Of a stretch of DNA of 64,000 nucleotides, positions 18,193 to 60,672 are shown one piece after another (the first letter of the stretch is position 1; every line of letters starts with the position of its first letter). The notes under the pieces are model-generated. The model was not told where the DNA came from, ran no database searches, and worked only from the letters and a program-made list of their open reading frames with translations. Location: sequence record MZ189262.1, one strand, 5' to 3'. The stretch comes from Escherichia phage W143. The position numbers were made by a program, and so were the translations under genes.

Positions 18193-19619
18193 TAAAATTT
18201 TAATTCGTTTGCTAAAGCATCTAACTGGGCTCGAGTAGATTCGTTTCTTTGATAGCGGTTCTGTTCAGCCTGAATCTGCTGTGAACCTGCTACTTCGTTC
18301 ACTTCAGTTGGAGTAGAATCTTGTTCAATTTCTACCCATTTCTGATTTCCTTTTTGAACACCCATCAAAAACTTATTCCATTTATTCTTATCACCATATC
18401 GTGATTTGATTTGCTTAATGAGTTGTTGTTCAGCAGCTGCTAACTCCTCGGTTTCAATGACCGCAAGCATAAAATCGGCTGTTGCTGGAAGACCGGCGGA
18501 TTCTGCAATATCGCTCATGTTAACATCGGAAGAATCCCAAGCTTGTTTACCAACCTGCGCTGCAGTCCAAAGAACAGTTTCTGTTTCAACAGCCAGAGCA
18601 CGCAATTCCTCTGCGATAGCTTTAACAGTTGTGTAACTATTTTCTGAGTAAACTCTGATGCGGCAAGATTTACAAATACCTAGATAGTCGACAATAATGA
18701 TTGTTGGAACAAAATTCTTCTTGAGCTTTAATTCGTTTAAAAGCGATCTAAATGTATTAGCGTCTGCTCCGCCAGTAGGATACTGTTTAACGATTAAACG
18801 GCCGAGAGTAGATTTCTCACGCCATTTTTCCATTTTTCCTTTATATTCAGCGTAAGAAATATGCCCATCATCAATGTCATCAAGAGAAACATCGAGCATA
18901 TTAGCGTCAATACGCTTAGCACAGACTTCTTCTGCCATTTCCATTGAAATGTAAAGAACATTATGACCGAGCTGCAAATAATCTGCTGCCAATGAACACA
19001 GACCTAATGACTTGCCAACGTTAACACCAGCCATTAAAACGTTCAGTGTTCCAGTTTCAGCTCCGCCTTTAGTAATTTTATTTAGAATTTTGAGTTTAAA
19101 TGGAACCTTACGAGCTTTATTCATATAAGATAGCCAACGTGCTTCATAGTCATCCATCCAATCATGACCAACGTAACTATCAAATGAAATTGATAATGCT
19201 TGGCGCATGATGTCAGGAATAGCACCAACATCTGGCATTTTCTTATTTCGTTTTTCTGGAGGAAGCTCAGCATTAGTTTGAATTTCAATTATTTTAGACG
19301 TAGCATTAAACATCGCCCTTTGCTGAACATATTTTTCTGTTTCTTTTACTAACCAGCTGTGGTCTTCCGGAGAATCGGTTAGTTTTGAAATAAGTGTTTT
19401 TACACCAGAATATTCTGTTTCAGTAAATGAACTATTTTCTAACGCAACATTTAACGCATTAATAGATGGAACGCTATGATACTCATTGACATGAGATTTA
19501 ATTAATTTGAATGTATTTTTAGCTGGACCACTTTCAAAATATTCTGAATCCATATATGGCCAAACTTTTGAAAAATAAGCTTGATCAAATATGAGATGAG
19601 AAAGAATAATTTCTACCAC
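18192..19619 (-). CDS. 41: replicative DNA helicase gp41 (DnaB-like)
   Basis: 475-aa ORF; Walker A GVNVGKS, DnaB-family architecture. Confidence 0.9.
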   Translation of the reverse strand: MVEIILSHLIFDQAYFSKVWPYMDSEYFESGPAKNTFKLIKSHVNEYHSVPSINALNVALENSSFTETEYSGVKTLISKLTDSPEDHSWLVKETEKYVQQRAMFNATSKIIEIQTNAELPPEKRNKKMPDVGAIPDIMRQALSISFDSYVGHDWMDDYEARWLSYMNKARKVPFKLKILNKITKGGAETGTLNVLMAGVNVGKSLGLCSLAADYLQLGHNVLYISMEMAEEVCAKRIDANMLDVSLDDIDDGHISYAEYKGKMEKWREKSTLGRLIVKQYPTGGADANTFRSLLNELKLKKNFVPTIIIVDYLGICKSCRIRVYSENSYTTVKAIAEELRALAVETETVLWTAAQVGKQAWDSSDVNMSDIAESAGLPATADFMLAVIETEELAAAEQQLIKQIKSRYGDKNKWNKFLMGVQKGNQKWVEIEQDSTPTEVNEVAGSQQIQAEQNRYQRNESTRAQLDALANELKF

Positions 19620-59534: not shown

Positions 59535-59758
59535 ATACTGGCTTCTTTGAGTTTCGTTTTAGCAATAGTTAACTGATCAAGACTTTCAGCATAATTCTTC
59601 GCGAATTCACAGTCTTCACAATTATCTAGTGCTTCCCAGAATTCATCATATAAAGCATCAAAGATAAGTCCTAAACGAACTTCAGCATCTTTGATAGCAT
59701 TCACTTTACCGATTTTCTCTTCAGTATGTGGCTTATAACCCTTAATATCTTCAATCAT
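59492..59758 (-). CDS. hypothetical protein
   Basis: 88-aa ORF. Confidence 0.5.
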
Positions 59759-59972
59759 ATTTTACTTCCTCACCAGTACCTAAATCATATTCAACTAAAC
59801 GAATAGGTTCATGAATGCCATATCCCTGAACAGAAATTTCTGTCGTAGGATAAATTCCATCAATATCACCCATATTCCATGCTTCATTAAATTGCTGTTC
59901 GCCTGAATTACTAAACCATTCGGCGAAAGCATTTAGCACATCTTCAGAACCTTCAATAATTATCTTTGCCAT
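59751..59972 (-). CDS. hypothetical protein
   Basis: 73-aa ORF. Confidence 0.5.
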   Translation of the reverse strand: MAKIIIEGSEDVLNAFAEWFSNSGEQQFNEAWNMGDIDGIYPTTEISVQGYGIHEPIRLVEYDLGTGEEVKYD

Positions 59973-60334
59973 TACAGACTCTCGGTAAAGGTACGAGCGA
60001 TAACGTCGCGCTGCTGTTCCGGAGTCAGAGAGTTAAAGCGAACTGCATAACCGGATACACGGATGGTCAGCTGCGGATATTTTTCCGGATGCTTAACTGC
60101 ATCTTCCAGAGTTTCACGACGCAGAACGTTTACGTTCAGGTGTTGACCACCTTCAATTTTAACTGTAGGTTGTGTTTCAATTTCAATTTCACGGGCATGT
60201 AAACCGTAGAAAATTTCTGGGTCTACAAAAGAGTCCTCTTTAAAGGTTTTAGAGACAATAATTCGTGCTTGAATACCGTCTTCAAAATAAATAGTACCTT
60301 TATGTGTGCCTTCAAGAATTTGATATGCTTTCAT
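59972..60334 (-). CDS. autonomous glycyl radical cofactor GrcA/YfiD-like protein
   Basis: trimmed to MKAYQILEG; C-terminal half carries the RVSGYAVRF glycine-radical motif and is, from memory, near-identical to enterobacterial GrcA; locally GC-richer DNA. Confidence 0.7.
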
Positions 60335-60342
60335 ATAACCTC

Positions 60343-60672
60343 TCAATTAGAAAATAAATTTATCCAAGATTGCTCTTTAATTAAAAATGGCTCAGAATCA
60401 TATGCCATTAAACTTTGGGTAATTAGTCCTTTAAAAGGCCCATCAATAAATTCCATGGTAAAATATGGAATTTTATTCATTAATCTTGCATTAGGAGCAG
60501 TGCACAAAACTCTGCATCCTTTGAATACGCCTTTTTGTAATTTGTATTGCTTAGGATAAAATTCGCTCAAGACGTTGTTATTTGCCAAAATTTCAAAATG
60601 ATTCACCAATTTATTTTTAATAGTTTTTGGCGAAAAATAAAGATATTCGAAAAGTTGCGTGTCTGTCATCAT
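60343..60672 (-). CDS. hypothetical protein
   Basis: track ORF trimmed to [10 protein letters not shown], abutting the upstream stop. Confidence 0.45.

Follow-up and report, generated by a model that had tools for sequence, protein, structure and literature searches.

The vs.6 gene of a Tequatrovirus carries a core identical to Escherichia coli grcA: evidence for recurrent gene conversion from the host in T-even phages

The subject of this study is a single gene in a stretch of 64,000 nucleotides (nt) from Escherichia phage W143 (sequence record MZ189262.1), a Tequatrovirus; the whole of this stretch is called the window below. The gene, vs.6, encodes a small homologue of GrcA, the glycyl-radical cofactor of enterobacteria. 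A preliminary description of the window had placed a GrcA-like gene at 59972-60334, and these coordinates proved to be exact: the gene lies on the minus strand and encodes 120 amino acids (aa). We found that a core of 172 nt in its 3' part is identical to the grcA gene of Escherichia coli, and very probably this core was copied from the host chromosome by gene conversion. The features of the locus are as follows.

59972-60334, minus strand: coding sequence of vs.6, ortholog of the gene for T4 Y06I, 120 aa plus stop, recognised by its open reading frame (ORF), its identity to T4 and its family matches
60334-60332 (ATG) and 59974-59972 (stop), minus strand: start and stop codons of the 363-nt coding sequence
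60339-60344, minus strand: Shine-Dalgarno sequence GAGAGG of vs.6, read from the sequence, 4 nt before the ATG and overlapping the vs.7 stop
60157-60334, minus strand: 5' part of phage type, from codon 1 to the first base of codon 60, AT-rich, a diverged homologue of the N-terminal half of GrcA
59985-60156, minus strand: host-identical core of 172 nt, gene positions 179-350, codons 60-117, glycyl-radical domain, delimited by codon alignment
60050-60052, minus strand: codon of Gly95, which is predicted to carry the radical within RVSGYAVRF, from sequence and alignment
59975-59984, minus strand: 3' tail of phage type, comprising the final 10 nt of coding sequence (C GAG AGT CTG), delimited by alignment to E. 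coli grcA
59751-59972, minus strand: vs.5, whose ATG overlaps the vs.6 stop (TAATG) and which marks the downstream end of host homology

The vs.6 ORF stands alone, with its own Shine-Dalgarno sequence and start codon and with unrelated small phage genes on either side. It is part of the block denV-vs.8-vs.7-vs.6-vs.5-vs.4-vs.3-regB-vs.1, the order of which is common to the window, T4, Pu-Krd-SF4, JS09 and ST0, and the flanking genes vs.7, vs.5 and vs.4 are 96-97% identical to those of T4. The gene itself is 100% identical in an independent isolate, Escherichia phage Pu-Krd-SF4, and shares 97.2% of its nucleotides and 118/120 residues with T4 vs.6, which together with the shared neighbourhood makes the T4 homologue Y06I, already pointed out in the preliminary description, its ortholog. 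In T4 the gene bears the name vs.6 and not tk.4. A scan for promoters and terminators around vs.6 yielded no signal above shuffled expectation.

When vs.6 was aligned by codons with E. coli grcA (allele L001), all 172 of 172 nt in the core were identical. Within one ORF, identity to the host gene steps at gene position 179 from about 49% in the 178-nt 5' part, the G+C content (GC) of which is 0.33, to 100%. Taken over the last 186 nt of the gene, 97.8% of the positions agree with E. coli grcA, and 60 of the last 61 residues agree with E. coli GrcA; the near identity to GrcA that had been noticed for the C-terminal 60 or so codons around the RVSGYAVRF motif is thus borne out at both levels. The 3' tail adds three synonymous differences from E. 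coli, at 59984, 59981 and 59978. In a BLAST search the 3' part of vs.6 was matched at 98.4% over 185 nt in every one of the 5,426 complete E. coli genomes, and in three megablast searches that together covered the 64 kb against the same genomes, the core was the only stretch of the window matching E. coli.

The composition of the patch points in the same direction. The GC of the patch, 0.492, is reached by only 0.03% of 185-nt windows, the mean of the window being 0.346 (standard deviation 0.039), and the GC of third codon positions is 0.44 in the core, 0.18 in the 5' part of vs.6 and 0.25 in the long ORFs of the window. All five leucine codons of the core are CTG and all three proline codons are CCG, codons with usages of 8% and 16%, respectively, in the long ORFs of the window. 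The exact match over 172 nt, the host-like GC and codons, and the wide distance that separates E. coli from the next closest bacteria uphold a recent origin of the 3' part from Escherichia; the preliminary description had proposed a recent capture from the host. The second GC-richest spot, with GC up to 0.497, lies at 18358-18696 within a minus-strand ORF (18195-19553, 453 aa) that by its map position would be the replicative helicase gene 41; no megablast match of 18358-18696 to any of the E. coli genomes was found.

The identity was further set against a bacterial panel of 80 grcA genes from Enterobacterales (mostly Enterobacteriaceae) and Pasteurellaceae. Judged by these comparisons, the identity of the core is far above what protein conservation yields, because GrcA proteins of other Enterobacterales with 95-98% aa identity in the 3' part reach only 83-90% nt identity to the phage, against 97.8% for E. 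coli, and because phages of the RB16 type, which encode 61 identical residues there, agree in only 83% of the nucleotides, with a synonymous divergence (dS) of about 1.8 and a nonsynonymous divergence (dN) of 0.

The core is also the one region where removal of host reads, nucleotide-based host prediction or the polymerase chain reaction (PCR) can confuse phage DNA with that of E. coli or Klebsiella. In a 2026 paper grcA serves as a quantitative PCR marker for Straboviridae of E. coli (PMC12845203). The primers of that study are placed outside the core, in the 5' part of phage type and in the 3' tail, and should leave host grcA unamplified; with any primer or probe lying within the 172 nt of the core, host grcA would be amplified.

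The host-like core recurs widely among phages of E. coli. When the window phage was compared with the Mosigvirus JS09, vs.7, vs.5 and vs.4 were 73% identical, the 5' part of vs.6 89% and the core 98.2%; third-position differences numbered 12/60 in the 5' part and 3/55 in the core (Fisher p=0.026). With the majority 173-nt allele of E. coli as the query, 373 phage records matched at 99% or more, 269 at 95-99%, 2 at 90-95% and 107 at 80-90%. The best 40 of the 373 records were all 100% identical over 173 nt and included several T4 strains as well as RB14, RB51, RB59 and RB68. Three polymorphisms of E. coli grcA, at positions 172 (A/G), 160 (A/T) and 145 (T/C) counted from the gene end, are found in the phages with the same bases. 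At position 160 the window phage shares its A with about 589/5,426 E. coli genomes, and T4 and most of its relatives have the majority T. An internal difference between phages and allele L001 was considered as a phage-specific mutation and ruled out, the phage T being the majority E. coli allele; likewise, the match that in JS09 and ST0 runs 7 nt past the grcA stop was attributed to chance.

As to the 5' part itself (60157-60334), its 89% identity to JS09, with neighbours at about 73%, could reflect either stronger constraint or exchange between phages.

A second group of phages, the Jiaodaviruses of Klebsiella, was approached by scanning metagenomes with a degenerate pattern for LLDAVEH, the Klebsiella-type form of a segment that reads LEDAVKH in E. 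coli. The scan returned 63 bacterial-type grcA genes representing 33 alleles, and alleles #1, #3 and #15 all stood in the context ung-grcA-srmB; eamB, tried as a context marker on the Klebsiella-type contigs, gave no match. The same scan also picked up contigs of JD18-like phages, in which phage sequence flanks the gene on either side. The Jiaodavirus cores were 93.7-99.4% identical to one or another of the bacterial alleles. Isolate GF agreed with allele #15 at 6/6 diagnostic sites, L182 and the isolate L108 matched allele #1 (n=21), and L177 agreed with allele #3 at 13/13 sites from position 145 to 25 and was allele-#1-like at positions 178 and 175; the core of JD18 is a hybrid of #15 and #1. 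Compared site by site, the Jiaodavirus cores thus correspond to three or more distinct bacterial alleles of the Klebsiella type. Consistently, the dS between the 3' halves of T4 and JD18, 0.67, tracks that of the host genes (0.81) and not that of the phage 5' halves (2.1). An earlier finding that JD18 lacks the patch (86-89% identity) was an artefact of the 80-species panel, which held no close Klebsiella alleles, and was reversed by the metagenome alleles. In the Jiaodavirus deposited as 'Salmonella phage PSE-D1' the core is of the Klebsiella type, with only 86% identity to grcA of Salmonella, and the tract extends further right than other Jiaodavirus tracts.

The edges of the tract are sharply defined. 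The left edge is identical in 11 Tequatrovirus and Mosigvirus and 10 Jiaodavirus sequences and lies just before GAAGG(T/C)GG (EGGQH); it is fixed because homology between phage and host is absent upstream of the core. The right edge shifts by a few codons: T4 has ACT GAA, as does E. coli, the window has ACC GAG, and the Jiaodaviruses have a longer phage-type tail encoding TEAL. Within the tail of the window gene, GAGAG (59979-59983) is a candidate Shine-Dalgarno sequence for the overlapping vs.5, and in Klebsiella phage KLB8 a ribosome-binding site is annotated at the equivalent tail position. The right edge was probably set jointly by selection on the ribosome-binding site of vs.5 and by the loss of homology at the stop codon.

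The preliminary description had pictured the gene as a captured 3' half of the host gene fused to a phage-specific N-terminus. The host origin of the DNA holds, and the remainder of that picture does not. Scored by themselves against a profile of the N-halves of 66 bacterial GrcA proteins, the first 59 aa reach 16.5 bits, whereas none of 200 shuffled sequences exceeds 4.4, and the NCBIfam GrcA model TIGR04365 (InterPro IPR011140) aligns with residues 20-120 of vs.6 (154.6 bits). The N-terminal half is hence a GrcA homologue, if one that differs from the bacterial proteins by an aa identity of 34% and by being 7 residues shorter. Moreover, full-length vs.6 genes with 3' halves only 75-84% identical to any bacterial grcA occur in phages of the CC31/Karamvirus, KP15, RB16/RB43 and ECD7 types, and full-length vs.6 without a host-like 3' part is also present in T5-like and jumbo phages. 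Because the N-half is homologous to GrcA and relatives carry a patch-free full-length vs.6, the event would be gene conversion, in which a grcA homologue already present in the phage had its matching part exchanged for host sequence, and no fusion; nor does a one-off capture agree with the patch-free genes of other T4-like genera and the recurrence of different host alleles.

Some of the patch-free lineages encode host-type residues all the same. The RB16/RB43 types, presumably phages of E. coli, encode LEDAVKH, and in the RB16 type 61/61 aa equal E. coli GrcA; the KP15 type, presumably phages of Klebsiella, encodes LLDAVEH. The nt identity of these types to their hosts is only about 80-84%. 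Such residues would be either the remains of older, decayed conversions or the outcome of selection for host matching. In addition, eight IMG/VR contigs (L101-L106, L113 and L116) carry GrcA homologues with Pasteurellaceae-like C-termini, and L103 shares an exact run of 56 nt with a Haemophilus grcA at 82% identity overall, which may indicate a similar host-to-phage exchange or a shared codon bias. One further contig, L111 (IMGVR_UViG_2706794630_000006), bears a bacterial-type grcA with the N-terminus MITGIQIT and with identities to Yersinia of 91% in the 3' half and 86% in the 5' half; this contig is probably a piece of bacterial DNA or of DNA next to a prophage, and its gene no phage homologue.

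At the protein level the assignment to the GrcA family is well founded. The Pfam family Gly_radical (PF01228) matches the vs.6 protein with 67.2 bits (cut-off 22.2). Among solved structures the best match is E. coli GrcA itself (PDB 6OWR, E=4.6e-42, vs.6 residues 22-120), and the next structure matches are to the C-terminus of pyruvate formate-lyase (PFL; PflB, PDB 1H16 and others). With 120 aa, vs.6 fits the class of small stand-alone GrcA proteins (about 14 kDa, about 120-127 aa). The RVSGYAVRF motif occupies residues 92-100, and the radical glycine, Gly95, corresponds to G102 of E. coli GrcA, with a 7-residue offset in the alignment to 6OWR, and to G734 of PflB (PMC8683613). According to PMC8683613, work from Knappe's group (Wagner et al. 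2001) demonstrated that T4 Y06I and E. coli YfiD are radicalised by PFL activase and that both restore PFL cleaved by O2; the role as a spare radical domain, mentioned in the preliminary description, is therefore a published one. Since the window protein is identical to the in vitro-tested Y06I in all but two residues, and like it is a stand-alone protein of 120 aa with the same motif and gene neighbourhood, the same function may be assumed by orthology: the host activase PflA would place the radical on Gly95, and radicalised vs.6 would replace the O2-cleaved C-terminal piece of the host enzyme. As a further hypothesis, the formate made by PFL may supply NrdD, the anaerobic ribonucleotide reductase of the phage. 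In an earlier survey the Pfam match of vs.6 was noted and a role in nucleotide metabolism was guessed, with nothing further (Nolan et al. 2006). Gene and protein function being already known, the value of the present results lies at the DNA level: what is new for Y06I and GrcA is the finding that the core of the radical domain has apparently been re-copied from the host gene recently and repeatedly.

Other explanations of the shared core were weighed. Near identity by itself is directionless, and exchange in both directions has been reported for the cyanophage gene psbA (PMC1484495), so the 3' half of enterobacterial grcA might in principle derive from T-even phages. This is scarcely credible, given that the patch has a GC of 0.49 and host codons in a phage with a GC of 0.35, while the E. 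coli gene is E. coli-like in composition along its whole length. The two halves of E. coli grcA are also equally diverged from the genes of related bacteria, with dS in the 3' versus the 5' half of 0.42 vs 0.50 for Citrobacter, 0.90 vs 0.99 for Salmonella and 0.81 vs 0.96 for Klebsiella; every one of the 5,426 genomes contains a match to the allele, and grcA sits at the same ung-grcA-eamB locus in 5/5 E. coli strains examined. The phage-type 3' tail was found in none of the E. coli genomes, 0/5,426 reaching 99% identity to the 185 nt of the phage. On this evidence the direction of transfer is from host to phage. Contamination of phage assemblies with host reads, resulting in a chimeric consensus, has practically no probability left: phage lysates do contain host DNA, and L177 and L182 are metagenome assemblies, but about 640 independently sequenced isolates, T4 (AF158101) and several T4 laboratory strains among them, carry the patch between phage-type flanks, private phage variants such as R to H in T4 occur inside the patches, and the window sequence is 100% identical to that of an independent isolate. 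A single ancient capture in the T-even ancestor, with the 3' part held by strong codon or RNA selection and no later exchange, deserves more thought, as the T-even phages of E. coli share the left edge, most of them share the GAG AGT tail, and the amino-acid constraint on the domain is extreme (dN about 0). Nevertheless, it is very unlikely and to a large extent refuted. The RB16 type, with the same 61 aa at 83% nt identity, demonstrates that this constraint leaves synonymous sites free; flanks that are 73% identical between Tequatrovirus and Mosigvirus enclose a core 98-100% identical to extant E. coli alleles; the Jiaodavirus cores fit several Klebsiella-type alleles site by site; and E. coli polymorphisms are common to the phages.

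We consequently favour, with high though not full confidence, the reading that vs.6 is a Y06I-type spare part with an E. coli-derived core from gene conversion, a process recurrent across Tequatrovirus, Mosigvirus and Jiaodavirus. As far as alignments can establish such matters, they demonstrate the host origin of the core, its direction of transfer, the edges of the tract and the multiplicity of donors. Several points weigh against this reading or narrow it. Phage-host recombination is read here from sequences, and within one genus the spread of a converted core from phage to phage cannot be separated from independent host-phage events. The A/T difference at position 160 is a single site, for which a point mutation is possible. 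L177 and L182, as metagenome assemblies, could contain a mis-assembled host-identical stretch; the cultured isolates GF, JD18, PSE-D1 and L108 still give at least two donor alleles. 'Klebsiella-type' is a label for donor alleles and does not name their species. Several T4-like genera are without the patch, and no Salmonella-type patch was found in deposited phages (best 83.8%), so the conversion is not universal. Finally, the whole-protein score of vs.6, 154.6 bits, is below the TIGR04365 equivalog cut-off of 170 bits because the N-terminal half has diverged; vs.6 of JD18 is likewise under the cut-off (146.9 bits). The shortfall suggests that vs.6 forms a diverged phage subfamily of GrcA and no strict bacterial equivalog.

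A different matter is whether the conversions, if real, have any adaptive value, or are a neutral by-product of the only host-homologous stretch with no tracking of the host. The neutral possibility is a sub-variant of the gene conversion reading rather than a true alternative to it, and we consider its chances to be even. It agrees with the presence of only one host-similar stretch in 64 kb, with nearly all differences transferred within one host species being synonymous, and with tract edges that coincide with the limits of homology. The retention of host-type residues (LEDAVKH, LLDAVEH) without a recent patch in the RB16 and KP15 types, on the other hand, hints at selection. A more ambitious proposal is that vs.6 is self-updating, the grcA allele of each new host overwriting the core, and is selected to match the PFL and PflA of that host; it is offered tentatively and is rather doubtful at present. 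If it were true, the core would record the recent natural host of a lineage, E. coli-type in Tequatroviruses labelled 'Yersinia', 'Serratia' or 'Pseudomonas' and Klebsiella-type in PSE-D1, and there would be direct natural evidence of routine recombination of T-even phages with the host chromosome.

With regard to the route of gene conversion, it is known from plasmid 'insertion/substitution' genetics that UvsX/UvsY-dependent recombination of T4 readily swaps short homologous segments with non-phage, cytosine-containing DNA in the infected cell. The T-even phages themselves replace cytosine by modified hydroxymethylcytosine. A pathway of UvsX-type strand invasion into fragments of host DNA is plausible. 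In the infected cell such fragments would feed the very active homologous recombination of the phage, for which vs.6 would be the sole place similar enough to the host. A core copied from the chromosomal grcA would then be flanked by the old AT-rich phage-type 5' part and the short phage-type tail, and a host-like core, once gained, would ease further exchange with related alleles. The plasmid experiments differ from this case in that they used engineered plasmids with T4 DNA; the exchange considered for vs.6 would be with the chromosome of the natural host, and its outcome has become fixed in nature.

The vs.6 conversion resembles, by analogy, the mosaicism of psbA and psbD in T4-like cyanophages, for which intragenic host-phage recombination and patchy GC have been described (Zeidner et al. 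2005; Sullivan et al. 2006, PMC1484495). Both systems involve a host-derived metabolic gene segments of which are exchanged with the host, and vs.6 has a sharp intragenic step in GC and identity. In contrast to the cyanophage genes, the tract in vs.6 is one block with edges fixed by the limits of homology, its identity to living host alleles rises to 100% over 172-173 nt, the donors are assignable by allele, the direction is clearly from host to phage, and the phages are virulent enterobacterial T-even phages. We found no report of the nt identity between vs.6 and grcA or of recurrent conversion in the searchable literature, where mentions of the gene concerned its function or its Pfam family, although an earlier remark in the T4 genome review (PMC150520) is possible; the recurrent conversion thus appears to be undescribed. 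In the best-studied group of virulent phages, the locus thus lets recombination from the host into a virulent phage be read simply from natural sequences. It is also a possible marker of the recent natural host of a T-even phage, and it can serve to examine whether selection keeps auxiliary metabolic genes of phages matched to the host.

The E. coli-type core is also present in Tequatroviruses deposited with other hosts, namely Yersinia phages PYps32T, fPS-2 and fPS-90, Serratia phage PhiZZ30 and 'Pseudomonas' phage PsgM02F. The core may report the natural host of a lineage rather than the host used for isolation.

Two observations concern the deposited records. The T4 reference AF158101 (vs.6 at 4558-4920 of L167) differs from the window protein by T54P and R72H; the latter change lies inside the host-derived core and is absent from those other T4 strains that match the E. 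coli allele at 100%. Furthermore, mis-annotation of vs.6 is widespread among deposited phage genomes: matches are labelled 'HNH homing endonuclease' (ZCEC14), 'pyruvate formate-lyase', '2-ketobutyrate formate-lyase', 'ribonucleotide reductase subunit' and 'acetyltransferase-related', and in the T2 record AP018813 the match falls under 'tail sheath monomer | tail tube protein'. These divergent labels are evident errors or offsets of annotation.

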